A DNA stretch of 64,000 bases from Promethearchaeota archaeon (GTDB lineage Archaea; Asgardarchaeota; Lokiarchaeia; Sigyniarchaeales; SOKP01). The notes beneath the pieces are model-generated. The model was not told where the DNA came from, ran no database searches, and saw only the letters and a list, made by a program, of their open reading frames with translations. The stretch covers positions 10,344-74,343 of the forward strand of contig JAHPZJ010000027.1 in NCBI GenBank assembly GCA_019058245.1. The letters are read 5' to 3'. A program made the position numbers and the translations under genes. Shown piece by piece: positions 10,172-36,316 of the stretch (its first letter is position 1; each line of letters starts with the position of its first letter).

Positions 10172-12199
10172 ATGGGTTTTAAAAAAATTGATATTGACGA
10201 ATTAAAAACAAAAGCAAGCCCAACTTTTCTTGGTATACCTATCAGGGAAGGAGGTAAACTTATCCAAAAAAGCTATAGAGAAAAAAAAATTGAATCAAGT
10301 TACATGGGAACAAGCTCAGAAGTATTGATATTAAATGAAGAATTTTTGGAATATGATTATCAAAACGATGGAACAAGAAAAGGAGTTATAGGTAATGGAA
10401 ATATTTCAATTTTCAATAATTCTATTAAAGATAGAATCTGGGATGCAAATTTACAATTTTCTGGCTCACAGTTTAATAACCAGAAAGCCGAAAATAATCT
10501 TAATTTAGGTGTCTTTGAACCTAATTCAAATAAAGTATTGAAATATGAAATTATAAATTCTGAGGATTTGCCGGATTTAATAAATGTAACTGAAAGTATT
10601 GATAACCTTAATGAAGATATTGGAATCTTTAGAAATAGTTATGAGGATTTAGAATTAAGTAATCATGAAATCTTGGAAAAAAGTCAGGATAAAAATTATT
10701 TATTGTTATGGGGAAAAGAGAATAAGGTAAAATTTACAATTAACATTGCTAACGTATCATCATATACACTTGTTAATATTAAGTTTAAAAAATTATTTGC
10801 AAATGTTTTTTACGATTTGGAATTTAAGTGCGAAAAAAGTAAGGAATTTAAAGTTATTAGAAATTCTATAGAAAGTTCATTAAATAATATTAATCCAGGT
10901 GAAAGTATTGATATAGTTATTTATGCAAAAGTATTTCCCAAAAAGAAAGAAAATATCAAAACAGGAAATATTGAATTAACATTTAACTTATCAAATAGAG
11001 TAATTTCCGGAGTAACAATCGATCATTTCTCAGCATATTCTCATGCGATGCATGCCATTAAAAAAACGGAAAAGATTCACGAACCTAATAACTGGAAATG
11101 TTCTCTTATATTCGAAAACTTAAGTGATTTTTCATTAAAATTGAAATCTATCCAAATATTTGATAAAAATAAAAAAAATAAAATTCTGGATTTAGATTCT
11201 AGAACACTAAGAAAACAAGTAGTCAATCCTCATGGTAAATATAAAACAGATTCTTTTTATTTTGTTGATGAAAAGGAGCCAATATTTTCAAGAAAAGTTG
11301 AATATTCTATTGGTTACAAGACTGAAAAGAATTCAATGATTACTTCCAGATATGAAGATAATTTCTTTGTCATTGCTCATTCAACAACAAAAAAGAAATT
11401 ATCAGACGAAGAGATTAAATCATTTGAAGAGGCTTCAGTACATTCCCAAATAACAATCAGTAATCAAGGGACGATACCAATCAGGGGTCTACAAATTATA
11501 GAAAAAATACCTGAAGATTTTTTACCTACAGGAAATATTTCAGATTATACATTAAGTAAATCCTCGGGTAAATTAATAATTGATGATCTTGAATTAAAAA
11601 TAAAGCCTGATGATGAAGATTCTTCTCATGAACACACCATAGAATTAAATATCAATTTAAAAACCAGTAGTTTAAATTCAGTAATTGATGTGGATAATTT
11701 CTTAGAGTTAAAGTATCCTCTTAAAGCAGTAAACCCAGATTATAAAAGAGATTATAATTTTCCACTTAGAGTTTATATCTTTTACTCAAAATATAAGGAT
11801 TCTGATCGAAAAGAGTATTACATGATATCGGAAGATCTTTCTGATATGGATAAATCTAAAATAAGAATTACTCATAAAAGAAGAAAAGTTACTATTGGAA
11901 AACAGATTTATCCAGGAAGGAGCGCTAATGAATTTGCTATTTATATTATCGCAAAAAATGGTTCAAATATGAAAATGAATGATATAAATATTACAGATTC
12001 TTTTCCAGATTCATTTGAAATGATCTCCTCAAATGCAGAATATAAGCTCACTAAATCAAAGAAAAATGCTGAACAAAAAATATCCTTTACAGTTGATACT
12101 CTTTTACCTTACCAAGAAAAAGAGATAATGTATTATTTAAAAAATATAACTGAAAAAGAGATAAAATCATCAGAATTAGAGTCATTTTTTGTTGGATAA
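10172..12199 (+). CDS. hypothetical 675-aa protein inside the che operon
   Basis: Long ORF with a GGAGG SD and no signal peptide or TM segment. Repeated segments (INIANVSSYTLVNIKF, ITISNQGTIPIRGLQII, YIIAKNGSNMKMNDINITDSFP) resemble CARDB/DUF11-type beta-sandwich strands; this is inference. Confidence 0.65.
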   Translation: MGFKKIDIDELKTKASPTFLGIPIREGGKLIQKSYREKKIESSYMGTSSEVLILNEEFLEYDYQNDGTRKGVIGNGNISIFNNSIKDRIWDANLQFSGSQFNNQKAENNLNLGVFEPNSNKVLKYEIINSEDLPDLINVTESIDNLNEDIGIFRNSYEDLELSNHEILEKSQDKNYLLLWGKENKVKFTINIANVSSYTLVNIKFKKLFANVFYDLEFKCEKSKEFKVIRNSIESSLNNINPGESIDIVIYAKVFPKKKENIKTGNIELTFNLSNRVISGVTIDHFSAYSHAMHAIKKTEKIHEPNNWKCSLIFENLSDFSLKLKSIQIFDKNKKNKILDLDSRTLRKQVVNPHGKYKTDSFYFVDEKEPIFSRKVEYSIGYKTEKNSMITSRYEDNFFVIAHSTTKKKLSDEEIKSFEEASVHSQITISNQGTIPIRGLQIIEKIPEDFLPTGNISDYTLSKSSGKLIIDDLELKIKPDDEDSSHEHTIELNINLKTSSLNSVIDVDNFLELKYPLKAVNPDYKRDYNFPLRVYIFYSKYKDSDRKEYYMISEDLSDMDKSKIRITHKRRKVTIGKQIYPGRSANEFAIYIIAKNGSNMKMNDINITDSFPDSFEMISSNAEYKLTKSKKNAEQKISFTVDTLLPYQEKEIMYYLKNITEKEIKSSELESFFVG

Positions 12200-12237
12200 T
12201 AAAAAAATAATTAAGATAAAAATTAGGAGGAAGAAAT

Positions 12238-13080
12238 ATGAAACTACAATATTATGAAATGATGGATGATAAATCTAAAAAATATTTATTATATCTCATC
12301 GAACAAGTCTTGCCCCAATTCACTGTAAGTGAACTTAAACTTTTTTTGGAAGATTTTTCTAATAACCTTAAAAATGGAAAAAAGTCTTCAAAATCAGCTA
12401 AAAATTATGTTGAAATAGGAAATGATGCAGGAAAATTAGCTGATTTATCAAACTTAACCATAGAAGAGTTAAAATTAATGTTCCAAATTTATATAAGCCG
12501 AGAAAAAAATGATAAATTTAGTATTAAGTGGCGGTTTTATCAATATCTTAAATACATGTTAGATTTAGACCTAAAATCAGTTAAAGTTAACCAAGATCTT
12601 AATCCAGACTCATTAATTGATTTGATTGTTGAAACCGTAGAAAAAGAAGTAATTCTTATATTATGTTATGATGTTTTAAGTATAGACATTTATAATAAAG
12701 CTATAATTAAGATAAATGAATTTGCAAAGGAAGAAAATTTAATTCCTGATAGAATTATTTTTGCTGTGGGTAAATCATTTCGTAATATACCAATTGATAT
12801 ACCTATAAAAATTATCAACAAGGAGCTTATACCTGAATTATGGATTGAATGGATTGAAGAGAACTGTCCCTTCAATAGAGAAGATTTAATTATTGTAAAT
12901 GATAGAGAACTAAAACTCGCGGGTTTTAACTTTACTAATATAGAGGATATGCTGAATTATATATTTAGATATTCCAATGGTGGGCAAATTACCATATATA
13001 GACAGGTCGATTTTTTTACAGAAGTTGATGAGGATGAACCCGAATTGGAATTAATTTGGAAAGGAATTATGTTAAAATAA
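12238..13080 (+). CDS. hypothetical 280-aa protein inside the che operon
   Basis: ORF with an AGGAGG SD and no recognisable motif. It is not CheR, because no SAM-binding motif is present. Confidence 0.6.
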   Translation: MKLQYYEMMDDKSKKYLLYLIEQVLPQFTVSELKLFLEDFSNNLKNGKKSSKSAKNYVEIGNDAGKLADLSNLTIEELKLMFQIYISREKNDKFSIKWRFYQYLKYMLDLDLKSVKVNQDLNPDSLIDLIVETVEKEVILILCYDVLSIDIYNKAIIKINEFAKEENLIPDRIIFAVGKSFRNIPIDIPIKIINKELIPELWIEWIEENCPFNREDLIIVNDRELKLAGFNFTNIEDMLNYIFRYSNGGQITIYRQVDFFTEVDEDEPELELIWKGIMLK

Positions 13081-13121
13081 AAATTAAACAGAAAAAATAG
13101 GAGAAAAAAGAGGTCAACAAT

Positions 13122-15113
13122 ATGTTAGAAACTGAATTTCAAAATAACGAATTTAAAGATACAATAAACGTAGTAATTATTCAAGTTCTTGATGAAAGAT
13201 ATCTTATAGAAGTTAAAAATATAAAGGAAATTTATGTTCCAGGGGATAATATCATTCCCGTTCCTTTAACAGATAAATCCATACTTGGTATTATTAATAT
13301 AAGAGGAGAAATTTATTCAATTATCTCATTAAGACATAATATATCTGATGATAATGATATTGATTATGGTTTATCTAACACATCACGGATTTTACTATTA
13401 GAATATGAAGACTTAAAAATAGCTTTATTAGTAGATTCCGTAATTGGCGTTAAAAATATTCCCCTTTCAATCTTCAAAAAACAAGGTACTATTGTAAAAA
13501 CAAGTATTGATTTCAGATTGATAAAATTAACTGGAATTTTTCAGGATGAAGCACTTATATTATTAGACCTACAAGCTTTAATTCAACCTTATTTGAAATC
13601 TCAGGTTAAGAAAGTAGAGAAAAAGATAGAACAAAAACCTAAAGTCCTTGAACGTGCTAAAATCCACCCTAAAGTGAAGCCAAAAACAACACCAGAACCT
13701 AGCAGCATTGAATCAGCTGTTATAATCCCTCAAAAAACACCATCTGAAATGCAGCTGACTAAGATTCCAGTAGAAAAAAAACGAAAACAAGTATCATTAT
13801 CGAATGAACAGCAAGATATTCTTAGAGAGATTGGTAATATAGGAACTGGAAACGCTGTTACAGCTTTATCACGACTAGTTAAAAAGAAAATAGATGTTAC
13901 TCTCACAGATGTAGGTATTATACCTTTAAATGAATTACCAAAACAATTTGGTGGTGCTAAAGAGAAAGTATGCGGGATTTTTTGTCATATAGATAAACCA
14001 TCTCAAGCAACTATTTTAAATATTTTTGAAATGCAACCACTAATGAAATTGATAGCACAATTAGCGGGGCCTCAATCTAAGATAGATCCTAAAAAGGTGA
14101 AATCTAAAAAAGATCTTGATGATTTTGCTATTTCCACTATTGTAGAGATGGGTAATATTATGGCAGGGCATTATGCCTCTGCATTAGCTGATTTATTAGA
14201 AACAAAAATGCTGATTGATATTCCGGAATTTACAATGAGTAAAGCTGGAGAAATTGGAGAATTTCTTTCTAAAGAATTAGAATCTATTGCGGAGTATTTT
14301 ATTATAATAAAAACTTCAGTAAACGTAGCGGATTTGAAACTGACAGGTATGTTCTTCTTTATCCCTGATCTTGAAACGTTAAAGACATTTTTCAATAAAT
14401 TAGGTATTGAACATGATATACCTGTCAAGATAATGACAACTAAAAGAGCAACTGAAATCCCAAGTATCGATAAGATAAAGCTTTCAGAAGTGCAAAGAGA
14501 TGCGTTACAAGAAGTCGGAAATATTGGTGCTGGAAATGCCGCTAACGCCTTAGCTCAAATGATTAACAAAAGAGTAGATATAAATATTCCATCAGTAGAG
14601 ATGGTTGAATTGGATGAGTATGCAAATACTATGAGTAATAAAAATGAGACCCTTTTGGTCGCTTGGAGTAATGTTACTGGTAAAACTCGAGCTACTGTCC
14701 TGACATTGTTTAATATAAAAGATGCTATTGATATAACCTCAATAATAGTAGATGATAGAGATAAAAAACAAATCGATCTTAGAAAAAAAATTAGTAAAGC
14801 GTCTGATTTTCCTGAGCTTTATCATAGTGCAATATCTGAACTAGGGCATATATTAGGTAGCCATTATGTAAGTGCAATTGGGGATTTATTAGGTATAAGA
14901 TTAATGACAGAACCTCCAGATATGAGCGTGGACACGGGACGTCAATTATTTAAAATTTTAAAAGAGGAAATTGGATTACTAAAAAAATTATCACTGGTTA
15001 TTACTACAAATGTGATTATCACAGACATTAAAGTTACTGGTACTTTCTTGTTCATTCCCAACTTAGAAACATTACAAGAATTATTGGAGGCACTTTTAAA
15101 GTTTTATTCTTAA
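13122..15113 (+). CDS. CheW-CheC-CheC fusion protein (CheY-P phosphatase-like)
   Basis: The N-terminal CheW-like domain (IIQVLDERYLIEVKNIKEI..GIINIRGEIYSIISL) is followed by a Lys/Pro-rich linker. Two CheC-type modules follow, carrying ExxN sites: REIGNIGTGNAVTALS, VEMGNIMAGHYASALA, QEVGNIGAGNAANALA, and a degenerate SELGHILGSHYVSAI. Confidence 0.8.
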   Translation: MLETEFQNNEFKDTINVVIIQVLDERYLIEVKNIKEIYVPGDNIIPVPLTDKSILGIINIRGEIYSIISLRHNISDDNDIDYGLSNTSRILLLEYEDLKIALLVDSVIGVKNIPLSIFKKQGTIVKTSIDFRLIKLTGIFQDEALILLDLQALIQPYLKSQVKKVEKKIEQKPKVLERAKIHPKVKPKTTPEPSSIESAVIIPQKTPSEMQLTKIPVEKKRKQVSLSNEQQDILREIGNIGTGNAVTALSRLVKKKIDVTLTDVGIIPLNELPKQFGGAKEKVCGIFCHIDKPSQATILNIFEMQPLMKLIAQLAGPQSKIDPKKVKSKKDLDDFAISTIVEMGNIMAGHYASALADLLETKMLIDIPEFTMSKAGEIGEFLSKELESIAEYFIIIKTSVNVADLKLTGMFFFIPDLETLKTFFNKLGIEHDIPVKIMTTKRATEIPSIDKIKLSEVQRDALQEVGNIGAGNAANALAQMINKRVDINIPSVEMVELDEYANTMSNKNETLLVAWSNVTGKTRATVLTLFNIKDAIDITSIIVDDRDKKQIDLRKKISKASDFPELYHSAISELGHILGSHYVSAIGDLLGIRLMTEPPDMSVDTGRQLFKILKEEIGLLKKLSLVITTNVIITDIKVTGTFLFIPNLETLQELLEALLKFYS

Positions 15114-15234
15114 ATTAATCATTAAGAATTATTTTTATCTCAATTTTATTCTAAAATTTCAAAATCGAATGAAGAAGATTTATATTTAAAATAAATCTAA
15201 ATAGAATATTAAAAATTATAGATAGGGATTAAAT

Positions 15235-15789
15235 ATGTTAAAAAGCGGTTATTACGACTTTATTTATGAAGTACAAGGTGAAACACTTAAACTAAGGCCC
15301 GAGAAGATGTTTGATCCCAATTGCGTGTATTTAATAGTAGATAAGGAGTTAAAACTTATTTGGATCTGGGCGGGTAGTCATTCTCGATTATTTCATCGAT
15401 ATATGGCAGCTAATTTTGCAGGAAAACTCAAGACAAAAAAGAAATTTTATAATTTTAAATATGAAGTCGTTAAAGAAGGTATTGAACCTCCTGAATTTCA
15501 TATAATATACAAAGAGATTAAAGAACAAAATTCTACTATAACCTATCCTGGGCAATCTAGATATATTGTTAAACAAACTCAAGCCCCAAGTAGTTATGGG
15601 GGAACTTCATCTTTAGATACAAGTTTAGAATCTAAAATAATTCTAGATGGTCGAGAATTATCAAAATCTGTCAAATCTCGTATTAAAAAAATTTTATCTG
15701 AGATAAAAGAAATTCAATCACATATAACTTATTCAATTAATCATATCCAACAACGTTTTGCCGAAATTGAAAAATTATTAGAAAATTAG
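15235..15789 (+). CDS. gelsolin-like domain protein with C-terminal coiled coil
   Basis: The N-terminal 95 aa follow the gelsolin-repeat pattern: CVYLIVDKELKLIWIWAGSHS...AANFAGKL...EVVKEGIEPPEF. Compare the remembered gelsolin G1 pattern AYVILKT..LHYWLGNECS...QHREVQGFESATF. Confidence 0.6.
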   Translation: MLKSGYYDFIYEVQGETLKLRPEKMFDPNCVYLIVDKELKLIWIWAGSHSRLFHRYMAANFAGKLKTKKKFYNFKYEVVKEGIEPPEFHIIYKEIKEQNSTITYPGQSRYIVKQTQAPSSYGGTSSLDTSLESKIILDGRELSKSVKSRIKKILSEIKEIQSHITYSINHIQQRFAEIEKLLEN

Positions 15790-16062
15790 AGTGTTTAGAA
15801 ACGATAAGAATTAAGGATATTAGATTTGATTCGAATTATTTAAAACTGCTAACGTACCTATTAATTAATAATATTGAATTTACTTCTGATTATAATAGAA
15901 GAAATATTGTCAAAAGAAGAATCAGTTATTGAATTATTGAAAGGAGGTAAAAGTCAAGAGAATTGTTAATTTTAGGAAAAATAGAGTAAAAAATTTAATC
16001 AGAATATAATTAAAAACTTAAAGTTTGTTATAATCATATGTAATTGAAAAAAGAGGGCTCAA

Positions 16063-17205
16063 ATGTCGATTAAGGTTCTTTTAGCGGAAGATTCAAGCTA
16101 TCAGAGAAAGCTAATAACTGATATGCTATTATCAAGCAAGGAGATTTCTAAAGTAGAAGTTGCTAAAAATGGAAAAGAAGCTATTAAAAAAATTGAGTCA
16201 GTAAATCCAGATGTTTTAATTTTAGATTTAATAATGCCTAAAATAGACGGAATAACGGTGTTCAAATTCCTTTCAGAACATTATCCAATACCTACAATAA
16301 TATTTACAGCTAAATCTCCAGAAACATTAGATGATTCTGTTCAAGCTTTACTTTTAGGAGCATTTGATTTTATTGTAAAACCAAAAGGACTATGGAAAGA
16401 AGAACTCCCCAAATTAAAAGAAAAATTAATTTTTAGTACGCTTTATGCGAGTAAAATAAAAAAGACCTATGAAAAACGAAATTTATTAATAAAGAAATCT
16501 TTCGAGAAACCTCTTAATTTGATAACTGAACAATATCAAATAATTAAAAAGCCTAAACCAAAGATTGAAAAAGCTCTGAAAATAACACCCTTACTTGAAG
16601 GTAAATTAACACCCAATGCAATAGTTATAGGAACTAGTACTGGTGGTCCTAGAACCTTAAAAACAATATTAAAAGATATTCCAAAAGATTTTTCATCACC
16701 AATTTTAATGGTTCAACATTTAGATGAATTCTTTATGAAAGAATTCTCAAAATCATTAAATCAGGTCAGTAAAATTGAAGTTAAAATTCCTGTTAATGGG
16801 GAAAAAATTCTTCCAGGAATTGCTTATCTTAGTCCAGGAGAAAAACATATGGAAGTTGCCCAAAGAAACAAGATACAATACATTAAAATACTTGATGGGG
16901 AGCCTGTTAATTTTTGTAAGCCTTCGGTGGATGTTTTATTCCTTTCAGCAGCAAAAGTATATAAGGATCGAATTTTGGGGATCTTACTAACAGGTTTAGG
17001 ACAAGATGGTGCAGCTGGTTTAGAAGCAATTAAAAAAGGAGGAGGCCAAACAATTGCAGAATCAGAACAAACATGTGTGGTATATGGTATGCCTAAAGCG
17101 GCGGTAAAGAGAGGAGCTGCAAATTTAATCTTACCTAATTACCAAATTAAAGAACATATGTTAAAATTTGCTAGAAAAAATAAGGGTAATCCAATATATT
17201 CATAA
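16063..17205 (+). CDS. cheB: chemotaxis methylesterase/deamidase CheB (REC + esterase)
   Basis: Receiver domain (VLLAEDS, DVLILDLIMP) plus an esterase domain with GTSTGGP, MVQHL and GQDGAAGL. Confidence 0.9.
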   Translation: MSIKVLLAEDSSYQRKLITDMLLSSKEISKVEVAKNGKEAIKKIESVNPDVLILDLIMPKIDGITVFKFLSEHYPIPTIIFTAKSPETLDDSVQALLLGAFDFIVKPKGLWKEELPKLKEKLIFSTLYASKIKKTYEKRNLLIKKSFEKPLNLITEQYQIIKKPKPKIEKALKITPLLEGKLTPNAIVIGTSTGGPRTLKTILKDIPKDFSSPILMVQHLDEFFMKEFSKSLNQVSKIEVKIPVNGEKILPGIAYLSPGEKHMEVAQRNKIQYIKILDGEPVNFCKPSVDVLFLSAAKVYKDRILGILLTGLGQDGAAGLEAIKKGGGQTIAESEQTCVVYGMPKAAVKRGAANLILPNYQIKEHMLKFARKNKGNPIYS

Positions 17206-17226
17206 GGTTATAACCAAAACTTTAAG

Positions 17227-17775
17227 GTGAAAAAGATAAAACCCCATGGATGTATTGAAAAACCAAACACTGATGGAAAAATTATCTTACCAATAGGGCA
17301 TTATGCTATTGTAAATTGTAGAAATAAACCAAATAATATTTATACAAAAATATCAATTTATGGATTAGGGTCTTGTATTGCTCTGATACTTTTTGATAGT
17401 AAAAATAAAGTAAGTGGAATGTCTCATATATTACTTCCAAAATGTCAACTAAACAAAAAAATTGAATATCCTCACAAATATGCTGATCTCTCAGCAAATC
17501 TGTTACTTCAAGAATTATTAAACCGTGGAGCAATTAAGAAAAATATAAAAGCTGTGATTGTTGGGGGTTCAAAGATTTTTGAATTAGATGAAAATGGTAT
17601 AGGGATTAATAATATCAAAGCAATTAAAAATGAATTAAAAAAATTAGAAATTAAGATTATAGGAGAAAATACAGGAGGATCTGAAGGAAGAGTTGTCATA
17701 TTTGACACTAAAGATTTCTCAGTCTATGTTAGATTAACAAGAGAATCAAATCTTCAAAAAATAAAGTATTCATGA
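17227..17775 (+). CDS. cheD: chemoreceptor glutamine deamidase CheD
   Basis: 182 aa with GLGSCIALILFD and SHILLP motifs; GTG start. Confidence 0.85.
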   Translation: MKKIKPHGCIEKPNTDGKIILPIGHYAIVNCRNKPNNIYTKISIYGLGSCIALILFDSKNKVSGMSHILLPKCQLNKKIEYPHKYADLSANLLLQELLNRGAIKKNIKAVIVGGSKIFELDENGIGINNIKAIKNELKKLEIKIIGENTGGSEGRVVIFDTKDFSVYVRLTRESNLQKIKYS

Positions 17776-17816
17776 TATAATAATTTTAAAAAGATTTAAA
17801 ATTGAGAGGATTAAAA

Positions 17817-18470
17817 ATGAAAAAGCCAATTGATATAAAATTAACACAAGAACAATTAGACATTTTAAAAGAATTAGGTAATATCGGTTCTGGGCATGCA
17901 ATAACAGCACTTTCCAAATTACTTAATATTAAAATCGATGTTTCATTGACATCCATAGATATTGTTCCTTTTTGGAAAGTTCCCGAACTATTTAATAAGT
18001 CTGCAATTGATATGGTTGGAATCTATTCTAAGATTCCCTTTAAATCAGATTTAGCAATTATCCAATTATTTACAAAAGTATCGATAGTAAGTCTAATCAA
18101 TATTTTATCTGATAATGACAAAATTATGGTTGATGATATAAAAACTATTGATGATTTGGATGATTTTTCAGTAAGTATTATAAGTGAAATTGGAAATATC
18201 TTATCTGGTCATTATACTAATGCTTTAGCTGATATGCTATCAATTAAACTGGTACCAAATGTTCCAAAAATCGCATTAGATTCTTTGAATGCTATTTTAG
18301 AAACCTTAATTGCTAAATTTTCTCAATTGTCAGATTATATGATTTTAATAAATACAAAATTAATAGTTTTAGATGTAAATATAGAAGGTATAATCTGTCT
18401 TATCCCTTCAATCAATATCTTAAAAAATCTATTTAATATTCTAAACTTAAAATACGATCTAAATCTCTAG
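17817..18470 (+). CDS. cheC: CheY-P phosphatase CheC
   Basis: Two ExxN sites (LKELGNIGSGHAITALS and ISEIGNILSGHYTNALA). The ORF track starts at TTG 17802; the ATG at 17817 follows GAGAGGA and is preferred. Confidence 0.85.
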   Translation: MKKPIDIKLTQEQLDILKELGNIGSGHAITALSKLLNIKIDVSLTSIDIVPFWKVPELFNKSAIDMVGIYSKIPFKSDLAIIQLFTKVSIVSLINILSDNDKIMVDDIKTIDDLDDFSVSIISEIGNILSGHYTNALADMLSIKLVPNVPKIALDSLNAILETLIAKFSQLSDYMILINTKLIVLDVNIEGIICLIPSINILKNLFNILNLKYDLNL

Positions 18471-18611
18471 GAAAGATATTTGATGATATGTACAAATAAA
18501 CAAGCTTAATTTATTTTCAGTGAAATTTTATTTTTGGGTTTTAGTAACATATATATTTTCTAACTTTACTATTTATTAGAATAATTAATTAAATATAATT
18601 AGGAGAGTTAT

Positions 18612-19970
18612 TTGACGATTGATGTGGTTATTGCTGATGACAGCGCATTTTTAAGAAAAAATATAGCAAATATTCTAAAAGAACATGATTCAATTGATAT
18701 TACTGGATTTGCGAAGGATGGAGAAGAAGCTGTTAAACTTGTTAAAGAAATTAGCCCAGATGTCTTAGTTTTAGATTTAGTAATGCCTAAAATGAATGGA
18801 TTGGATGCATTCAAACTAATAATGGAGGAAAATCCCACGCCTACTGTTGTCCTTTCAGCTATTAGTCCAAAAAAACTGGACTCTTCCATTCAAGCTCTTT
18901 TAATGGGTGCTTTTGATTATATCATAAAACCAGGGGGTATTGGAGCAAAACCATTGCCAAGATTTCGTGAAGAATTACTCGCTAAAGTATTGTTAGCGTC
19001 TCAATCACAAATTAAAAAAATATTCAGAAAAGGAGAAATTATATTAAAAAAAGGAAGATCTCTCCGCCAGGAGATGGTTAATCGAATTTTTGATTTTGGA
19101 CAATATCTTAACAGATTAGAACCTATTCAAGAAATTGAGGAAGAACAAAAATACGATTCTTTCGAAATTATGAAGGTTAAGGCAATCCTCAAGGATGAAA
19201 CTAAGGGTAAATTAGCAGAGTCAGCATCGAGTGAAGAAATTAATAAGGCAATAATAAGTACATCAGAAACAAGTGAAGAAAGGATAGAACAGATATCAAG
19301 AAAATCAGCATTACTAAAAAAATCAACAAATGCACAATTTAAAAAGAGTAAAACAGTAAATATTCCTGATCTCTCCCCTATTAAAGGAACTACAATAAGT
19401 TCAAATATAATTGTTATAGGTGCTAGCGTTGGAGGACCTAGAACAATAACAACAATATTAAAAGAAATTCCAAGAAATTTTAAGGCACCAATCTTAATCG
19501 TTCAGCATTTATCTTCTCATTTTACAGATGCTTTTGCAGATAATTTAGATATGGAATGTGAACTCAAAATAAAAGTAGCTAATAATGGAGATTATATTAA
19601 ACCTGGTTATGTTTATCTTGCCCCTGGAGATGTGCATATGGAAATCTCTGTTGAAAATAATACACCTCTAATCAAAGTTTATAAAGGAAGTCCTGTTAAC
19701 TTTTGCATGCCTTCTATAGATGTATTATTTTTTTCAGCAGCAAAAGTTTATAGAAATCATGCTATGGGAATAATTCTAACTGGAATGGGCTCAGATGGTG
19801 TAGAAGGTCTGGGAGCAATTAAAAGAGTGGGTGGAAAGACAATAGCAGAAGATAAAAGTACTTCTATACTTTATGCTATGCCAAAATTTGCCTCTGAGAA
19901 AGGATATGCTAAACTTGTATTACCAAATTATAATATAAAAGATGAAATGATAAAATTCATTGGAAATTAG
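18612..19970 (+). CDS. cheB: second CheB paralogue with a long inter-domain linker
   Basis: Receiver domain (VVIADDS, DVLVLDLVMP), a long charged Ser/Glu/Lys-rich linker, then an esterase domain with GASVGGP, IVQHL and GSDGVEGL. TTG start follows AGGAG. Confidence 0.85.
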   Translation: MTIDVVIADDSAFLRKNIANILKEHDSIDITGFAKDGEEAVKLVKEISPDVLVLDLVMPKMNGLDAFKLIMEENPTPTVVLSAISPKKLDSSIQALLMGAFDYIIKPGGIGAKPLPRFREELLAKVLLASQSQIKKIFRKGEIILKKGRSLRQEMVNRIFDFGQYLNRLEPIQEIEEEQKYDSFEIMKVKAILKDETKGKLAESASSEEINKAIISTSETSEERIEQISRKSALLKKSTNAQFKKSKTVNIPDLSPIKGTTISSNIIVIGASVGGPRTITTILKEIPRNFKAPILIVQHLSSHFTDAFADNLDMECELKIKVANNGDYIKPGYVYLAPGDVHMEISVENNTPLIKVYKGSPVNFCMPSIDVLFFSAAKVYRNHAMGIILTGMGSDGVEGLGAIKRVGGKTIAEDKSTSILYAMPKFASEKGYAKLVLPNYNIKDEMIKFIGN

Positions 19971-28297: not shown

Positions 28298-29080
28298 TTA
28301 TATCATTAAATTTCTGACTTTTAAACATTTTCGGAATATATAAATATAAATTAATACGAAAATTATATCTGTAATTAAATTACCTATTCGATATATAAGC
28401 AATGAATTATTGATGTATCTCAAAAAATCAATAGTATTACTAATAAATTCAGATATTGTATTTAGAAAGCTAATTATTCCCAATATCGACATAACATATA
28501 AAACACAAGCGGAAGATGTATTTATCTTAAAATCAAACCATTTCACTCCATCTGTCGTATTGTTCAAATGAGATTTTCTAAATTTTAGACAACAAACTAA
28601 TGAATATAAATAAAACCCTAAAACAATCGATGGTATCAGGAAAAACAGTAAAATTGAAAAAATATCAGAGGGAATAATAGTTAAAGTAAAATCGAAAATA
28701 TAGATAAATATTATAGAGCAGATACTTATAATACCAATCGTGGTTCTAATAAATATAATTAAAGTAGAGGTGCTATTTAATTCAAATCTAAAAAATTTTG
28801 TTTTATTACTATTCTCATCTGTAAGAGGCTCCATCTTCTTTCTATCTCTTTTTGAGAATAATAAGCATTTATATATTGTATATCCATCAATCAGAGCAAA
28901 AAAGATTGCTTCAATTAAAATCAATATAATTGGCATAAGAAAAATAAATATTCCCGGTAAATCTATGAACCTATTCAAGCTAAAAATTATTATATAAATT
29001 GTTCCATAAATCCCTGCAAAAAAACTAATTAATCCAAATAATGACATAAAGAAAAGAACAGTGGCAGAAGTTCTGTTCAT
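28298..29080 (-). CDS. repeat-module membrane protein (modules 2-4), in frame with 29111..29440
   Basis: 260 aa with three copies of a two-TM module that starts [FW]F.F.(L/I)N.(T)S and ends with a Cys-Leu motif. Confidence 0.6.
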   Translation of the reverse strand: MNRTSATVLFFMSLFGLISFFAGIYGTIYIIIFSLNRFIDLPGIFIFLMPIILILIEAIFFALIDGYTIYKCLLFSKRDRKKMEPLTDENSNKTKFFRFELNSTSTLIIFIRTTIGIISICSIIFIYIFDFTLTIIPSDIFSILLFFLIPSIVLGFYLYSLVCCLKFRKSHLNNTTDGVKWFDFKINTSSACVLYVMSILGIISFLNTISEFISNTIDFLRYINNSLLIYRIGNLITDIIFVLIYIYIFRKCLKVRNLMI

Positions 29081-29110: not shown

Positions 29111-29440
29111 TTAATCAATTAAATACTTATCTCTCGTTATTAAACAAGAAAATAAAGTATAAACCATTATTGATAGTTGTATCAAATAGAGGATACTACC
29201 AATTAAAGTAATTATTAAATCGTTGATTGGAGGTATTGGTTGCATGTCGATAAAATCAAGGATATAATTATAACCGGTTGATATTGAAGAAATTAGAAAT
29301 GCTATAACTAAATAAAAGAGAATTACTGTAGAAGTCTGGTCTAAACTAAATCCAAAAAACTTTAACTCTTCATTTCTCTGATCATCCACGGATATCACCT
29401 TATCTATGAAAAGTAAATATATGTATTTAAAATTAATCAA
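29111..29440 (-). CDS. membrane protein carrying module 1 of the same repeat
   Basis: 109 aa. KFFGFSLDQTSTVILFY plus two TM segments plus SCLITR. The TAA at 29111..29113 is in frame with the downstream ORF. Confidence 0.55.
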   Translation of the reverse strand: MINFKYIYLLFIDKVISVDDQRNEELKFFGFSLDQTSTVILFYLVIAFLISSISTGYNYILDFIDMQPIPPINDLIITLIGSILYLIQLSIMVYTLFSCLITRDKYLID

Positions 29441-29504: not shown

Positions 29505-29606
29505 AGCCCAGTGGTGTAGCGGTCAAGCATCGGGGGCCCTGATAAGTCTAAACGTCTAGGATCTTGGAGATACCCCTGAACCACGGTTCGAATCCGTGCT
29601 GGGCTA
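29505..29606 (+). tRNA. intron-containing tRNA, probably tRNA-Gln(CUG)
   Basis: Acceptor AGCCCAG/CUGGGCU (A1:U72) plus A73; D-arm GUGU-AGCGGUCAA-GCAU; anticodon stem GGGGG/CCCCU; T-arm CACGG-UUCGAAU-CCGUG. 36 nt lie between the anticodon-stem halves. A canonical 37/38 intron (29543..29571) gives the loop CCCUGAA. Confidence 0.8.
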
Positions 29607-29649: not shown

Positions 29650-30411
29650 TTGAATTTTCTTATTCTTAATTACAAACTAAGGAAAATGATAGAAATGTTA
29701 ATTGATCCAAAAGTAAATAAATTGATAATCTTTAATGGTGGCGGTGGTATTGTTGAAAGACAGATTAAACTATCCTTAAATCAAGGTTTAAATAAATTTG
29801 AGATTGCCAATGTACCCGCTTCATTTGATCCTAATTCTGCAGATATCCAATTAGAATTTATTAATCCAGGAGATAAAGATTCAATCACCTTACAGCAAAC
29901 AATTGTATCACTTCCAGATAGAAATACTTCTCAGCAGATTATAGACCGAGAAAAATCCGCAGCAACCAGTATTATTTCATATGCTATTGATTTTACGCGT
30001 GAATTAAGAGAAAAAGTTTCTAATATATGTGAAGCAAGTTCTTATAGAACATTTGCGGATATGAAGGGTGTATTTGATTTTATAATAAGTGCTTCAAAAG
30101 TGGGTGAAATAATTGTAAAGATAATATATTTCATTGCAGATCTCCGTATTAAATGGCAAACTACATTGCAAGTTGATATAAAAAATGATGGCAAAAATGC
30201 TCAAATCGAAGGATTTCTCGTTGTGGATAATCAAACAGGATTTTCTTATGAAAATGTAGAACTTGGTTTTGCAATTTTCGAGTTACCGAGTACTGACATG
30301 GAGATACAATATGATAATTTTGGTGAAGCCGAAGAAGAAATGGCTCAACAGGCGATTTCGAGCCTATCAAAACAAAAAAGAACTCAACGAATGAGGAATT
30401 TAATGCTCTGA
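29650..30411 (+). CDS. hypothetical protein
   Basis: 253-aa ORF from a TTG start; ATG codons 11-15 codons further in are alternatives. No firm motif. Confidence 0.5.
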   Translation: MNFLILNYKLRKMIEMLIDPKVNKLIIFNGGGGIVERQIKLSLNQGLNKFEIANVPASFDPNSADIQLEFINPGDKDSITLQQTIVSLPDRNTSQQIIDREKSAATSIISYAIDFTRELREKVSNICEASSYRTFADMKGVFDFIISASKVGEIIVKIIYFIADLRIKWQTTLQVDIKNDGKNAQIEGFLVVDNQTGFSYENVELGFAIFELPSTDMEIQYDNFGEAEEEMAQQAISSLSKQKRTQRMRNLML

Positions 30412-30412
30412 G

Positions 30413-31102
30413 GTGAAAAAAGTGAAAGCTAATGTACCTACTCGTAAAAAAATAAAGCTTAATTGGTTTAAATCGAATTGTGCATTGAATATTGAGCGCA
30501 AGATTGCAATTGAATATAATACCAATTCAGTAACTTATAATAAAATAACTTGGGATGTTTTAGTTCAATATGTTCTCACAAAAGAGGGAGATCCTAAAGA
30601 AATTCCTGCAAATTCCCCAATGACGCTCTACAAGGGAGGCTTACCTTTCCTTTTCTTATCAACTTCAGTAACAATTGGGAATAAAATAATCTCAGAGGAA
30701 CTGATTGATTCAGATATTACTGTTGACGATGATATTATAAATGTTGATGAAGGAGAAGATAAAGTCACCTACGAAGATGCTCGGGATCCTAAAGAGCATA
30801 TTGAGGTAAGAACTCGACTTGATAAAATTACAAGGAAAATTACTATTGAAAACAAACTAGACAATGAAATAGATTTAGAACTTAATTTCAAACAAACAAA
30901 AGATGTTTCTTTTATAAAATCACAACCTGAACCATCAAAAGTCGAAGAACCTAATTATAATTATAATATAAAAATACCTTCAGAGCAAAAAGGCAGTGTA
31001 ATCTTAGATCTTCAAGCAAAAATTGTGAAAAGAGTTACAAGAATTAAACCAGAATATTTAAAATTAGAAGAAAATAGAATTAATAGGTTTAAAGATAAAT
31101 AA
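30413..31102 (+). CDS. hypothetical protein, translationally coupled to 29650..30411
   Basis: 229-aa ORF. GAGGTGA overlaps the upstream TGA; GTG starts are possible at 30413 or 30422. Confidence 0.5.
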   Translation: MKKVKANVPTRKKIKLNWFKSNCALNIERKIAIEYNTNSVTYNKITWDVLVQYVLTKEGDPKEIPANSPMTLYKGGLPFLFLSTSVTIGNKIISEELIDSDITVDDDIINVDEGEDKVTYEDARDPKEHIEVRTRLDKITRKITIENKLDNEIDLELNFKQTKDVSFIKSQPEPSKVEEPNYNYNIKIPSEQKGSVILDLQAKIVKRVTRIKPEYLKLEENRINRFKDK

Positions 31103-31285
31103 CTAATTTTTTTTATTTTAAGCAAAAAAATTTTGATATTTTAGGTTGTCCCTAGTACATTGGGATTTTTTTTCTATATTTGATATCTATTAAAATTCAA
31201 AAGTATAGGTATAAAACATTTAAAATTACAAATGTATTTTTATTACATAATTAAAACTTAAATTAATATAAAAAGTAGAAGTCCA

Positions 31286-31537
31286 ATGAAACTGGAACGT
31301 ATTAAAATTGAAAAAAAAAGATTTCTTACCCTTACGGTTATCTTCATAATAGCAGGGTCAATTCTTCTTGTTTTATCTGGTATTTGGGTTGTATCATGAG
31401 GTGAAATCGTGTATTCTTACGAATATTTAATGATTCCCGCAATAATATGCTATGTGGGGGCAATTGCTTTTTTTATAGTATATTTAATAGTAGTTATAAT
31501 GCAATTTCGAATGAAAAGAATAAATCAAGCAAATTAA
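31286..31537 (+). CDS. candidate small membrane selenoprotein, copy A (UGA at 31397..31399 read as Sec)
   Basis: ATG 31286 to TAA 31537 is open except for one TGA. There are two predicted TM helices. The post-TGA frame is conserved with copy B (PAIIC[YF]VGAI), and a SECIS-like element lies 48 nt downstream. Confidence 0.55.
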
Positions 31538-31584
31538 AAATTATATCGAGAAAATGAGTATATATAAGATCTAACTTGAGAAAA

Positions 31585-31637
31585 ATGATTTCTATAAAAA
31601 AATTTTAGTTATAGGATGATTATCCCCGCAAGGGACT
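31585..31637 (+). promoter_or_regulatory. SECIS-like 3' stem-loop, copy A
   Basis: AUGAU, then an 8-bp helix (31590..31597 with 31609..31616) with an A-rich loop, then UGAU, then the hairpin UCCC-CGCAA-GGGA. It is near-identical to 32052..32102. Confidence 0.5.
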
Positions 31638-31774
31638 CAAGTTTTTTTATTTATATTTATAATGAATCATAAAAAAATAATCAAGAATTTCACACACTAA
31701 TATTAAAAAGAAAAAACTGATTTATATAGAATAATTATATAATAAATTAATCAACATTTAAAGGGAAAGATTCA

Positions 31775-31990
31775 ATGAAATATAGCACAAGTAGAGAAAT
31801 ATTTTCTGGATTTACGGTTTTCTTTGTAATTATCGGTATATGTCTTCTTTTATTATCTGGTCTTATGGCTTGAGGAACACAAGTATTTCCATACGCGTGG
31901 GTTCCAGCAATTATATGTTTTGTTGGTGCGATAATTTCCTATGATTCATATAAAAAAGTAGTAAAACAAGATTCTCGAAATAAAAAATAA
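31775..31990 (+). CDS. candidate small membrane selenoprotein, copy B (UGA at 31871..31873 read as Sec)
   Basis: ATG 31775 to TAA 31990 is open except for one TGA at the position homologous to copy A. No in-frame ATG/GTG/TTG follows the TGA. A SECIS-like element lies 62 nt downstream. Confidence 0.55.
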
Positions 31991-32051
31991 ATTATGTTCC
32001 TAAAGAATATACTGATAAACTCTGTTTAATTGTCATCATTAATCCAAAAAA

Positions 32052-32102
32052 ATGATTCCTATAAAAAAATCTTAGTTGTAGGATGATTATCCCCGCAAGG
32101 GA
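32052..32102 (+). promoter_or_regulatory. SECIS-like 3' stem-loop, copy B
   Basis: AUGAU, then an 8-bp helix (32057..32064 with 32076..32083), then UGAU, then the hairpin UCCC-CGCAA-GGGA (32090..32102). Confidence 0.5.
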
Positions 32103-32120
32103 TTTGGATTACATATTTTT

Positions 32121-33051: not shown

Positions 33052-35424
33052 TTATAATTTAATAGATCTCGCAATAACAGTTCTGAAATTTTCGACATCA
33101 TTAACTAATTTATCAGCGTCTTCATCGTTAATCTTATCATCTTTACCGTATTTATTCAATTGAGTAAGCCAAAACTCAATTCTACCAAGAATAGCTTCTT
33201 TTTCACCTAGTACTTTTCGCAGTCGTACAAAAGTATCATGTAATTTGTTTCTTATATTTTGAGCTTTCCATCTCAACATACAATAATCAGAAATTTCTGC
33301 CAAATTTTGGGTTATCGCCATTACATCAATAGTTTTTTCTCGTTCCTCTGATTTAATCTTCCGTATTATATTTATTTCCTCAAATAAAAGCTCTATTATC
33401 TTAGCAAGGAAGCCAGTAAGTTGACCTGAATGGTTACACCAAACTCTAACCTCTAAAGACTGATTTACCTCAGATACATAAACTCGTGTTACAATTCTTC
33501 CACCACCAACCTTTGCTTCGGAACAATGCCAACTTTCTGCTTCATATTTTCCTTTCGCATCACTACCTTCATGAGAAGTGACTGTACTTACTTCAAAACG
33601 CTTTATTGTTCTTACTGCCGCTCTAAATGCTAAGCGGGGGTCTAAATCAGCAATTAAAAATGCTCGAGCATCATTAGGAAGATCTGCAATAGCTATTTGG
33701 ATATCTTCAATTGTAGCTAAACAAGAAACTACCAAAGGACATTTTATTTGCACTTCTTTTTTTCTTATATGGACAGTTTTTTTGTCTCCTGATGCCGTTT
33801 TGTAGATTACATCACCACCAATATTCGATATCCCACATTCTTTTGGTTCTAAATAGAAATCAACACCTCTAGAATTTTTAGCTTCGATAACTGGTATATT
33901 TATTAGATGATCCTTCGCTTTATAACTAGTTGGTACATCTAAGAGTACTTTAACTGAATTAATTGTCATACTACCTTGATTACGGATGACTACTTTAAAG
34001 TGTAATTGACCTCCAATAAAATCATATTCACGAACTACTTCAATTTTCCCACCATCAGTAGGTTCTTTAGTAATTTTCTGTGTTGATTGATCTTTTACTT
34101 CCATTGGTACACTATAAGCCACAAATGTTCTCTTTGACATATCAATATATCCATCAATATCACCGCGAGCAATAATCTGAGCTAAATTTTCTTCAATGCT
34201 TGATTCAGTTACTCCTAATCTATTAGCTAATTCTCTTAAAGGCATAGTTCTATATGCTCTTGCAAGTTCTTTTATTTTCTTCTCCATATATTTATTTGTC
34301 ATAAATTCTCTTCTTTGTGTAAAGATTCCTTTGATAGAACCTGTTTTTATAAGTTCATGAAGGCTTTTTCTTGCTAATTCTACAGCAATTTTTAATTTTG
34401 TGGCTAGTTTTGAAAGCTCAAATAATCCTGTCTCTTTAGAATAGTTTTTAATATCTTGATAAATTTGATCTGCTGTAATGATTTCATTTCCACGATCTGC
34501 AAAAAATCCGTTAATGGATTTTGTTCTCATTATGTTTACACAAAATGACTTTACAAGTTCCGTTGGAATGTGAAAATTATTTGCAAGTTGTTTTAAGGAG
34601 ACCCTACCTTTAGATTTTACTTCTTTTATCAAATTATCTAGGATATATTTTTGAGTATAATACGTCTCTTTATCTAATGAGAAAGATCCTTTTATTTGGA
34701 ATTGATTAATTAATTTATAAATTACTTTTATAGCTATATCAGAACTCATATCAAGCATTATTCCTAAATCTGCTACCTTAACTGAACCTTCACTCTGAAA
34801 CTTTGCTAATACTTTTTTCCGTATTTCGGTAGAGATATAATAAAACATCTGATTTTTTTGATCAATAATTCCATAGATTCTTTCTTCTTCTATATATTTA
34901 TTGATGAATTTAACCATCTGTTCGGCTGAGATATTAAATGAATTCATAATTGTTGAAAAGTTAATTATCGGGGCTCTTTTTAATAGATCCAAGAAACATT
35001 TAGGACATACTTCCCTTCCTATAATATGTCTTAATTTCTTACTACATAATGTCATTTTACTTCCTTTCATAAGGCCATATCTTATCGCTTCTCTTGCTAA
35101 TTTCTCTTTTGATGGAAAAAATAAACCTGGGGTTTTTAGATATGAATTCCAAGCTTCTGGACAATCAGTATTAGTACATTCTAAATAATATTGACCTGAA
35201 GATAACCTTTCCAATCTTAAAAGATGCTTACAAACAGGACATTCACTATTATCTACAACGGTACATTTATAGTTTCTTTCTATTGCCTTTACTTTTGAAT
35301 AGAAGAGATTGTGTTTTCGACACTCATGAGTTTCTGTGGTTGCTATATGATTAATACAGAAACTGGAATTACATTTTTCACACGTAAAGTCGATTCTTTC
35401 GCTTTCACAAAATAAACATTTCAT
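33052..35424 (-). CDS. large multidomain protein: AN1-like zinc finger, further CxxC ribbons, four winged-helix-like repeats, beta-sandwich-like C-terminal region
   Basis: 790 aa. C3-x2-C6-x8-C15-x2-C18-x4-C23-x2-H26-x6-H33-x-C35 is close to the AN1 pattern. Four segments of about 60 aa repeat, each ending ...G(S/D)I(K/D)G(I/Y/F)F. Confidence 0.55.
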   Translation of the reverse strand: MKCLFCESERIDFTCEKCNSSFCINHIATTETHECRKHNLFYSKVKAIERNYKCTVVDNSECPVCKHLLRLERLSSGQYYLECTNTDCPEAWNSYLKTPGLFFPSKEKLAREAIRYGLMKGSKMTLCSKKLRHIIGREVCPKCFLDLLKRAPIINFSTIMNSFNISAEQMVKFINKYIEEERIYGIIDQKNQMFYYISTEIRKKVLAKFQSEGSVKVADLGIMLDMSSDIAIKVIYKLINQFQIKGSFSLDKETYYTQKYILDNLIKEVKSKGRVSLKQLANNFHIPTELVKSFCVNIMRTKSINGFFADRGNEIITADQIYQDIKNYSKETGLFELSKLATKLKIAVELARKSLHELIKTGSIKGIFTQRREFMTNKYMEKKIKELARAYRTMPLRELANRLGVTESSIEENLAQIIARGDIDGYIDMSKRTFVAYSVPMEVKDQSTQKITKEPTDGGKIEVVREYDFIGGQLHFKVVIRNQGSMTINSVKVLLDVPTSYKAKDHLINIPVIEAKNSRGVDFYLEPKECGISNIGGDVIYKTASGDKKTVHIRKKEVQIKCPLVVSCLATIEDIQIAIADLPNDARAFLIADLDPRLAFRAAVRTIKRFEVSTVTSHEGSDAKGKYEAESWHCSEAKVGGGRIVTRVYVSEVNQSLEVRVWCNHSGQLTGFLAKIIELLFEEINIIRKIKSEEREKTIDVMAITQNLAEISDYCMLRWKAQNIRNKLHDTFVRLRKVLGEKEAILGRIEFWLTQLNKYGKDDKINDEDADKLVNDVENFRTVIARSIKL

Positions 35425-35584: not shown

Positions 35585-36316
35585 CTAAAAAGAAGATTCT
35601 GGGAATATATAAACCCCTAAAAATGATAAGATCATAATTATAGTATTAACTAATATTATAATAATTAACATAGTTAATATTATCCAATTCCTTTTGGATG
35701 GAGCAGATTTCATAATTTGAGATGTTCCATGCTTAGCTAAAGCTAAGGGAAATAATCCGATAAATGTACCTAATGAAAAATAAAACACAGTAAAAATTCC
35801 ATCAATAAACCCCAACCAACCACTTAACGAAAATGCTAAACATTGAGAATAAATGAAAAGCTCAAAAATACATGGAGCAAATCCTGCTAATATCCCAAAT
35901 AAATAAGGAGTCTTGTTTTTTTCCCAATTAAATTCAAATATTTCATCTTTTCTTTTTGAATGAGGCATATAACCCTTGCTTGCATAAATAAATAACAAAA
36001 TAAATCCTGCAAACATGGATGTTAATGCTCCAAAAAAATAGATTACATTTTTTGGTATTTCATGTATTCCTGGTATCAAGAGACGAGGAATAAAACTAAT
36101 TAAAATAGTAATGCTGGCAATTAACATATTAGAGGTCATTAATCCTAAGCCATAAAGTACTAAGATAATGAGACTTTTTTTAGGAGTTTTCGAGATCCCA
36201 AATGACCAAAAGAAAAATATTGCTTTATCTTCACAAGGCATTAAAGTATGGAATATTCCTATAATAAAAGCGGGAGCAAAAATTAGTAATAATGGCTGAG
36301 GATTAAATTCTAACAT
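35585..36316 (-). CDS. polytopic membrane protein (DsbD_2/UreH-like, putative transporter)
   Basis: 243 aa with about 6 TM segments. GIFHTLMPCEDKA and FAPCIFELF motifs; the assignment is weak. Confidence 0.4.
   Translation of the reverse strand: MLEFNPQPLLLIFAPAFIIGIFHTLMPCEDKAIFFFWSFGISKTPKKSLIILVLYGLGLMTSNMLIASITILISFIPRLLIPGIHEIPKNVIYFFGALTSMFAGFILLFIYASKGYMPHSKRKDEIFEFNWEKNKTPYLFGILAGFAPCIFELFIYSQCLAFSLSGWLGFIDGIFTVFYFSLGTFIGLFPLALAKHGTSQIMKSAPSKRNWIILTMLIIIILVNTIIMILSFLGVYIFPESSF

Follow-up and report, generated by a model that had tools for sequence, protein, structure and literature searches.

No known organisms are more closely related to eukaryotes than Asgard archaea, whose selenocysteine (Sec) insertion signals (SECIS elements) are regarded as the link that joins the Sec system of archaea to that of eukaryotes. 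As relayed in a review (PMC13188914), Sec is used by most Lokiarchaeia (PMC11227280). Seven selenoprotein families are described in Asgard archaea, namely SelD, FrhA/VhuU, HdrA, FrhD/VhuD, PrxL, AhpF-N and DsbA-like (PMC11227280; 2026 review PMC13188914). The element of these archaea, named lokiSECIS, is defined by six features (Mariotti et al. 2016, PMC4989117). Three concern the stem (AUGA before it, a length of 9 bp, and GA, rarely AA, after it) and three the loop (a length of 11 nt, A at the first five positions, and a final G preceded by A). The same authors reported that standard SECIS tools miss the Loki elements, and that a SECIS-first scan of Loki, in which upstream UGA-containing ORFs were reported, gave 'no further selenoprotein candidate' (Mariotti et al., PMC4989117).

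Here, a stretch of 64 kb with a G+C content of 27.9% (hereafter the window) was analysed. The window is Asgard archaeal DNA, from the group in which the lokiSECIS type operates. Synteny was found with one genome record only, a MAG of the Promethearchaeota (Lokiarchaeia) (locus L006); a neighbouring gene encodes a 790-residue protein of the ESP type (eukaryotic signature protein) with PCI, UFM1-ligase, DDRGK and VPS28 domains, and an FttA/aCPSF1 gene is located upstream. Sequence comparison indicates that the window very probably carries two paralogous genes of an undescribed family of 66–83-residue hairpin membrane proteins, in which a single in-frame UGA would be decoded as Sec.

Copy A extends over positions 31286..31537 of the plus strand (ATG at 31286, TAA at 31535–31537; 83 codons including the TGA) and would encode an 83-residue product, MKLERIKIEKKRFLTLTVIFIIAGSILLVLSGIWVVS-U-GEIVYSYEYLMIPAIICYVGAIAFFIVYLIVVIMQFRMKRINQAN, with two hydrophobic helices. 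Its in-frame TGA, the proposed Sec codon, is at 31397..31399 (plus strand), at the predicted outer end of helix 1 and before a Gly codon. Copy B extends over 31775..31990 of the same strand (ATG at 31775, TAA at 31988–31990; 71 codons) and would encode a 71-residue product, MKYSTSREIFSGFTVFFVIIGICLLLLSGLMA-U-GTQVFPYAWVPAIICFVGAIISYDSYKKVVKQDSRNKK, with the proposed Sec codon at 31871..31873 (plus strand). The coordinates and sequences of both copies, first given by a reading made from the letters of the window alone (the sequence-only reading), all proved correct when they were re-read from the sequence. Both are two-helix membrane ORFs interrupted by a single TGA each, and they are paralogues of one another. 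Their joined products are 42% identical with the TGAs aligned, and a GG[TA] (Gly) codon directly follows the TGA in both, as expected from the claim that the TGA has a homologous position followed by Gly. In the block [IV]PAIIC[YF]VGAI, located after the TGA, seven of the 11 codons differ between copies by a synonymous third-position change only, two by a conservative replacement, and two are identical, which bears out the claim of protein-level conservation in this part. It had also been stated that copy B has no start codon in frame after its TGA, and none of ATG, GTG and TTG is present there. Copy B, including its TGA and downstream element, was base-identical in the Logan assemblies of SRR26074165 and SRR26074226, indicating that its TGA is not an assembly error, given that these are two independent assemblies of other sequencing runs.

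Elsewhere in the window, TGA is a normal stop codon, as the sequence-only reading had held. Among the 49 frames that are open for at least 150 codons, 33 end with TAA, nine with TGA and seven with TAG, and the TGA-terminated set consists of cheD (17773–17775), the ORF ending at 26501 and seven further long ORFs. A genome-wide reassignment of TGA to Trp or Gly was ruled out, because nine of 49 long ORFs terminate at this codon. No gene for tRNA-Sec, SelB/EFSec, SPS, PSTK or SepSecS was found within the 64-kb window, a search that did not cover the rest of the genome. Indirect support for such machinery comes from a PrxL gene with an in-frame TGA in SRR26074220, SRR26074165 and SRR26074226, three sequencing runs in which genes of the window are also present, and from the use of Sec by most Lokiarchaeia.

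Each copy is followed, in the 3′-UTR, by a block of about 55 nt that differs between the copies at just three positions and whose flanks cannot be aligned. The order within the block is AUGA, a 9-nt strand, an 11-nt loop, the complementary 9-nt strand, GA, four nucleotides and the hairpin CCCCGCAAGGG. The claim that the same conserved stem-loop follows each copy was confirmed: the window contains exactly two instances of the 22-mer GGATGATTATCCCCGCAAGGGA, at 31614 and 32081 (0 in 100 shuffles). The element after copy A (SECIS A, 31575..31641, plus strand) is enclosed by an outer helix of CUUGAG (31575–80) and CUCAAG (31636–41). Inside this helix are AUGA at 31585–88, a 9-bp stem formed by 31589–97 with 31609–17, an 11-nt loop (AAAAAUUUUAG, 31598–608), GA at 31618–19 and the 3′ mini-hairpin at 31624–34, and a run of seven T follows at 31642–48. 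The element after copy B (SECIS B, 32040..32111, plus strand) has an outer helix of UAAUCCAAA (32040–48) and UUUGGAUUA (32103–11), AUGA at 32052–55, a stem formed by 32056–64 with 32076–84, the loop AAAAAUCUUAG (32065–75), GA at 32085–86, a mini-hairpin at 32091–101 and a T-run at about 32116–22; its fold z-score is −3.1. The outer helix differs in sequence between the two elements and retains its pairing. The elements lie 47 nt (copy A) and 61 nt (copy B) after the stop codon and 185 and 178 nt, respectively, after the UGA; this spacing of 178–185 nt and the location in the 3′-UTR agree with known archaeal and Asgard genes.

Comparison with the published descriptors showed that both elements have all six lokiSECIS features, with the 11-nt loop consensus AAAAAnnnnAG for the elements of this type in the window. 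As a positive control, PrxL (peroxiredoxin-like) genes with the motif FFRGNWU[SN]HC(KKHL), taken from the supplement of PMC11227280, were examined at six Asgard loci. Their 3′ flanks read gaAUGA-9-AAAAAAACGAG-9-GA-CAA-CCUUGCAAGGG-UUUUGGG, which matches the window elements in both core and 3′ mini-hairpin. These six PrxL elements alone were used to build a covariance model, designated R1, which was run over both strands of the 64 kb with filters off. SECIS B (28.8 bits, E 4e-5, 32049–32109) and SECIS A (23.7 bits, E 7e-4, 31582–31642) were the only two significant matches, the next best reaching 11.6 bits. The claim that the stem-loop is a candidate Sec insertion signal is thus supported by the published descriptors and by R1, both of which identify it as a lokiSECIS. 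On 20 Asgard loci, R1 recovered 19 elements at 25–47 bits, with no match in L012 under default filters. Rfam gave no SECIS match in the window at gathering or E-value thresholds, as expected from the absence of lokiSECIS from Rfam. A second PrxL type, LFRDINUPFC, was tried as a control and rejected: its loop is similarly A-rich, AUGA/GA is missing from the base of its hairpin, and R1 misses it. A C/D-box sRNA was ruled out, there being no CUGA D box and the element having a fixed position after UGA-containing ORFs.

Conservation of the RNA was evaluated in 23 elements, which were aligned without gaps. G19, A20, G50 and A51 were invariant, as were columns 30–34 (A) and 39–40 (AG), and U18 was present in 22 of the 23. 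In the main stem, 8/8 canonical (Watson–Crick or GU) pairs were changed on both sides. Pairing was found in 94.6% of stem cells, compared to 39–46% (about 41%) with the partner columns slid, and the covariation score was reached by 0 of 500 shuffles.

Since protein searches had given nothing, DNA collections were scanned with SECIS patterns. The SECIS pattern found 16 loci in GTDB genomes, 15 in Asgard MAGs and one in Fluviicola, and a family-specific pattern found seven loci in metagenomes, five of them real. The Fluviicola locus is a chance match and was rejected by R1, which rejects all three chance loci. Translation upstream of the elements revealed nine additional family members on at least four other Asgard contigs, giving the eleven analysed here: two in the window, one at L006, one at L019/L024, three at L020, one at L022 and three at L023. 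L006B is a syntenic orthologue; L024 is identical to L019; the three copies of L020 are in tandem with a single SECIS after the third, and those of L023 are also in tandem. The members share a short N-terminus (basic in most), followed by helix 1, in which one Gly is nearly invariant, and by the TGA; a loop of roughly 8–12 residues then leads to helix 2, which usually starts with [IY]P[AG]I, and the C-terminus is basic. Their length is 66–83 residues. The TGA is at the boundary between helix 1 and the loop in all eleven members, from at least five organisms, and the Sec column (U written as C) is one of only two invariant columns of the alignment. Homologues ending at the TGA would have refuted the sequence-only reading; the members instead keep both the TGA position and an open, conserved frame downstream of it. 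That reading had also listed a Cys in helix 2 (PAIIC), which is present in copies A and B but is not a family feature, the position being Cys in four of eleven members and Ser, Thr or Phe in the other seven.

Some relatives show decay. L006 retains merely the last 18 or so codons of copy A, L023_2 has no in-frame start, and a fourth L023 copy has no U and a degenerate SECIS. Two other families of small ORFs with an in-frame TGA and an element of the lokiSECIS type were also seen in other Asgard genomes, one a single-pass GGG-U-x-C protein and the other a zinc-ribbon-like ORF ending in U. Homology of the twin-ORF family to the GGG-U-x-C family was rejected (hhalign probability 0.7%).

Among the alternatives to Sec, it could be considered that the UGA is read through by a near-cognate Trp or Cys tRNA or by some local recoding, and that the kink-turn serves another purpose, such as L7Ae binding. 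The Sec machinery of this genome is unverified, kink-turns generally bind L7Ae-family proteins (PMC4989117), and at a membrane interface a Trp would make chemical sense. However, the resemblance to the PrxL SECIS goes beyond the kink-turn core and includes the stem length, the loop length, AAAAA..AG and the mini-hairpin, and the UGA of the control PrxL genes aligns with the catalytic Cys/Sec of peroxiredoxins. Moreover, none of the eleven members has TGG or TGY at the Sec position. This alternative is given very little weight; it is unlikely, although it cannot be excluded without mass spectrometry.

If, on the other hand, the TGA were a true stop, the products would be single-helix micropeptides of 32–37 residues, the downstream part would either form a small ORF of its own or remain untranslated, and the stem-loop would function as a terminator or stability element. 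In agreement with this, public gene calls contain only the 37-residue N-terminal fragment of copy A, which ends at the TGA; this genome uses TGA as a regular stop; in copy A, a GTG lies in frame three codons past the TGA; and a T-run stands behind each element. However, the frame after the TGA is open for 32–45 codons in 10 of the 11 members, yet six of the 11 have no usable in-frame start in this part. The exception, L020_3, has one additional in-frame TGA, and no other in-frame stop exists in the family, while the other two frames of the post-TGA part contain up to 10 stops. In shuffles of this A+T-rich DNA, an open frame arose by chance with P of 0.01–0.19 per member, and the log10 P values summed to −15.8 (P about 1e-16) with the members taken as independent, which is reasonable given their identities of 24–50%. 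The post-TGA part is also conserved as protein across organisms. HMMs were built separately for the pre- and post-TGA halves from the eight members that belong neither to the window nor to L006, and retrieved both halves of the window copies. The post-TGA model ranked copy A 31400–31534 first among 1516 window segments (E 4.5e-7), and the pre-TGA model ranked the two pre-TGA segments first and second, with 31262–31396 first. The dN/dS values of the post-TGA part (0.29–0.85, eight pairs) were broadly similar to those of the pre-TGA part (0.11–1.13); they are noisy and near saturation, and hence only supporting evidence. Finally, the element matches a model derived from SECIS elements of known selenoprotein genes, and ordinary genes lack it, with just two copies in the window. 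Termination at the TGA is consequently regarded as highly improbable. The idea of nonsense-mutated pseudogenes, or of a TGA created by faulty sequencing or assembly, has hardly any credibility and is effectively already refuted by the comparative data, for in spite of the decay seen in relatives (the copy A remnant of L006, L023_2 and the fourth L023 copy) the TGA has the same position in 11 genes from at least five organisms and three independent assemblies, and apart from the one TGA in L020_3 no further in-frame stops occur.

In the favoured Sec interpretation, an Asgard SECIS of the Lokiarchaeota (eukaryote-like) type would act from the 3′-UTR of the mRNA, about 180 nt past the UGA. The element has a kink-turn-type core (AUGA...GA) at the foot of the 9-bp helix, an A-rich loop of 11 nt on top of this helix and a small G+C hairpin behind it, and an outer helix closes the whole. 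By analogy with the Asgard, archaeal and eukaryotic systems, this SECIS would recruit the Sec-specific elongation factor and Sec-tRNA(Sec) to the UGA, and the ribosome would then proceed into helix 2 rather than terminate. The central claim of the sequence-only reading, UGA as Sec in a two-helix membrane family, gains support from the lokiSECIS, the TGA kept in homologues and the conserved open frame, while the Sec machinery of the source genome has not been checked. The support for recoding comes from comparison and not from experiment. To our knowledge, no experiment has yet demonstrated Sec insertion in an Asgard archaeon, and 'lokiSECIS' itself therefore rests on comparative genomics.

Investigation of protein databases revealed no described relative of the family, in line with the sequence-only reading, which did not recognize it: no Pfam, NCBIfam or published family matches. 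The best Pfam/NCBIfam match was DUF2269, at 22 bits against a cut-off of 28 bits, with none above cut-off, and at E ≤ 1 no SELENOK/SELENOS or MerT-like family was found. A word-indexed protein search with the joined sequences (U changed to C) returned nothing, and an exhaustive HMMER search with the post-TGA profile returned solely a spurious repeat protein. A protein-pattern scan of GTDB genomes was likewise negative, in part since one of the patterns extended across the Sec position. Nearly every known selenoprotein family has Cys homologues (PMC13188914). None was detected for this family among 5.8 billion clustered proteins, 1.84 billion representatives, GTDB genomes and the fetched loci, at a sensitivity that is low for hydrophobic proteins of about 70 residues; searches easily miss such short hydrophobic sequences, and the negative carries little weight in either direction. 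Full-text literature searches found no paper on archaeal membrane selenoproteins. Taken together, the recoding system is the known Asgard one and the protein family is previously undescribed.

In a crude hydropathy scan, 10 of the 11 members showed two hydrophobic segments. Lys and Arg are concentrated in the N- and C-terminal tails, and the loop contains 0–1 basic and 0–2 acidic residues. Under the positive-inside rule, such Lys/Arg-rich ends and a loop that is not predict that both termini are cytoplasmic and that Sec is at the extracytoplasmic end of helix 1. A fixed Sec–Cys redox pair is unlikely, as only four of the 11 members have the helix 2 Cys. The paralogues are tandem, co-oriented and sometimes overlapping, and elsewhere two or three of them share one SECIS; this arrangement suggests homo- or hetero-oligomers, which could unite two or more selenolates. 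No consistently adjacent redox partner was found. A parvulin gene and an HD-domain gene are nearby both in the window and in L006, a context unlike that of the L019–L023 group, whose neighbourhood includes a KaiC/RadB-like ATPase and a zinc-ribbon protein. As to function, a membrane-anchored selenolate on the outer face, engaged in redox chemistry or in binding thiophilic metals or chalcogens, can be proposed only speculatively and with low confidence, as there is no direct evidence.

The Asgard selenoproteome has so far been catalogued by homology only, as seven families that are all soluble redox or hydrogenase-related proteins. Discovery from the SECIS side shows that this catalogue is incomplete, and the family found is tiny, embedded in the membrane and without a detectable Cys counterpart; it is the first candidate archaeal membrane selenoprotein. 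Present annotation truncates or overlooks such genes. With a size of about 350 nt (ORF plus SECIS), they would make handy test cassettes for how an Asgard SECIS reaches the ribosome without SBP2. A broader interpretation, put forward only tentatively and with more doubt than confidence, is that Asgard archaea have a hidden repertoire of obligately Sec-containing micro-membrane proteins. This would comprise at least three unrelated lokiSECIS families of 36–83 residues (the two-helix family, the single-pass GGG-U-x-C family and the zinc-ribbon-like ORF ending in U), with selenolates on the outer face and assemblies of tandem paralogues. If this were true, these proteins would not be Sec versions of known thiol enzymes but would constitute a new functional class, and Asgard selenoproteomes, now counted at seven families, would be systematically undercounted by homology-based pipelines.

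The closest described genes are those for Asgard PrxL, HdrA-VhuD and VhuU (PMC4989117; Huang et al. 2024, PMC11227280), which have the same combination of an in-frame UGA and a SECIS in the 3′-UTR near the stop. Their SECIS is the one found here: it has AUGA/GA, a stem of 9 bp, the mini-hairpin CCNNGCAAGGG and an A-rich loop, 11 nt long, that ends in AG. The single SECIS reported for the tandem HdrA-VhuD genes has its counterpart in relatives of the twin ORFs. The protein itself is unrelated to the seven Asgard families, being an integral membrane hairpin of 66–83 residues that lacks a thioredoxin fold, an Fe-S domain, a UxxC/CxxU motif and a detected Cys homologue. SELENOK, SELENOS and the algal MSP are very small membrane-anchored proteins whose single Sec is their sole notable feature and whose genes have a kink-turn SECIS in the 3′-UTR, and the twin ORFs likewise combine a tiny membrane protein, a single proposed Sec and a 3′-UTR kink-turn SECIS. 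However, SELENOK and SELENOS are single-pass proteins with Sec near a cytosolic Gly-rich C-terminus, whereas the twin-ORF products have two helices, with the proposed Sec in the predicted external loop, and no sequence similarity to them. A Sec-containing putative mercuric transport protein is listed in a review (PMC13188914). This MerT-like selenoprotein (PF02411) and MerF/MerE share with the twin-ORF products a small size, a fold of two or three helices and the placing of a chalcogen ligand within or at helix 1. The twin-ORF products differ from the MerT-like type in having no Pfam/NCBIfam match and no vicinal Cys/Sec pair, and the MerT-like gene uses a bacterial in-frame SECIS, whereas the SECIS of the twin ORFs is archaeal and located in the 3′-UTR.

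In 12 Asgard MAGs, a SECIS of the type seen with the two-helix family is preceded by a second, unrelated family of small ORFs. Among the public loci fetched for comparison, members of this GGG-U-x-C family are located at L004:1833-2027, L005:604-804, L007:7501-7695 (minus strand), L009:259-444, L010:4539-4733 (minus strand), L011:3643-3837, L013:3535-3729, L015:574-762 (minus strand), L017:4244-4444 and L018:6027-6218, with further members in L012 and L014. The products are 61-66 residues long, contain a single helix and follow the pattern MPIKLLQDPRKKRIFL...N-GGG-U-[PGQS]-C, or UPSTC. The spacing from the UGA to the SECIS is almost constant (50-57 nt), and in six loci a second TGA forms the end of the ORF, 3 nt upstream of the SECIS AUGA. 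In public collections the family is represented only by a 47-residue fragment terminating at the first TGA.

Another type of ORF with a SECIS, zinc-ribbon-like and 36 residues long, was observed in L008 (~6870-7030, plus strand; SECIS at L008:7031) and L016 (minus strand; SECIS at L016:7608). It reads MLFCLKCKTKTIGTEEGYYYCKVCKK..RFK, followed by TGA and TAA, and its SECIS, about 45 nt downstream, scores high (41.7-47.3 bits). The TGA is either a codon for C-terminal Sec or an ordinary stop adjoining a SECIS that serves something else.

Irregular and decayed members were seen in the two-helix family. In L006:2609-2800 (minus strand), the syntenic locus of a related MAG, only the last ~18 codons of copy A, one of the two paralogues in the window, remain (..IQFRMKRINHTN*). 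The SECIS of this remnant retains the kink-turn hairpin and its mini-hairpin is mutated (CCAUGUCAGGG). The reduction of copy A together with the mutated mini-hairpin shows turnover of the family. Of the tandem copies elsewhere, L020_3 (L020:1091-1306, minus strand) carries a second in-frame TGA inside helix 2, at a position occupied by Gly in five of 10 paralogues; L023_2 (L023:1442-1669, minus strand) has no in-frame start, possibly owing to an A6 homopolymer frameshift; and the fourth L023 copy (L023:818-970, minus strand) lacks U, contains an NN gap and has a degenerate SECIS.

The remnant in L006 directly abuts the counterpart of an intron-containing tRNA gene at window 29505-29606. The Rfam model for tRNA found this gene (40.2 bits) and a second one, also with an intron, at 4195-4296 (37.1 bits), both on the plus strand; ARAGORN missed them. 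On the same strand, the ORF at 29650-30411, with a weak DUF4140 match and TGA as its stop codon, is followed two bases further on by the GTG start of an ORF in a different frame (30413-31102). This pair may represent a single gene that is split or frameshifted, and neither ORF is present in L006. Two membrane proteins on the minus strand (28298-29080 and 29111-29440) belong to no Pfam family and showed no detected relation to the selenoprotein family; the larger (28298-29080) seems to consist of a two-helix unit repeated three times in tandem. Also on the minus strand, a 790-residue Asgard protein of the eukaryotic signature type (33052-35424; PCI, UFM1-ligase, DDRGK and VPS28-like domains) adjoins a DsbD_2/CcdA-like thiol-disulfide membrane transporter (35585-36316), which lies 3.6 kb from copy B, with no link between them shown. 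Elsewhere, Pfam matches identified a large plus-strand chemotaxis cluster (7009-19970) in the order CheW, CheY-like receiver, CheA, CheW-CheC/CheX fusion, CheB, CheD, CheC and second CheB, interspersed with unannotated ORFs.

Among known selenoproteins, PrxL genes of the LFRDINUPFCRWH type have a conserved three-way structure at the 3' side (L026:1268-1345, L027:1271-1345 and L031:1277-1350). No AUGA/GA was found at the base of its main hairpin in these loci, and the structure was not detected by the PrxL type 2 model, a covariance model from six SECIS of FFRGNWU[SN]HC-type genes. Two of the three loci instead have an AUGA or GUGA overlapping the stop codon, and the third has ACGA there. The apical loop, AAAAAAAAUGAG, is the same as in other lokiSECIS elements, and the three-way structure may be a distinct SECIS variant.
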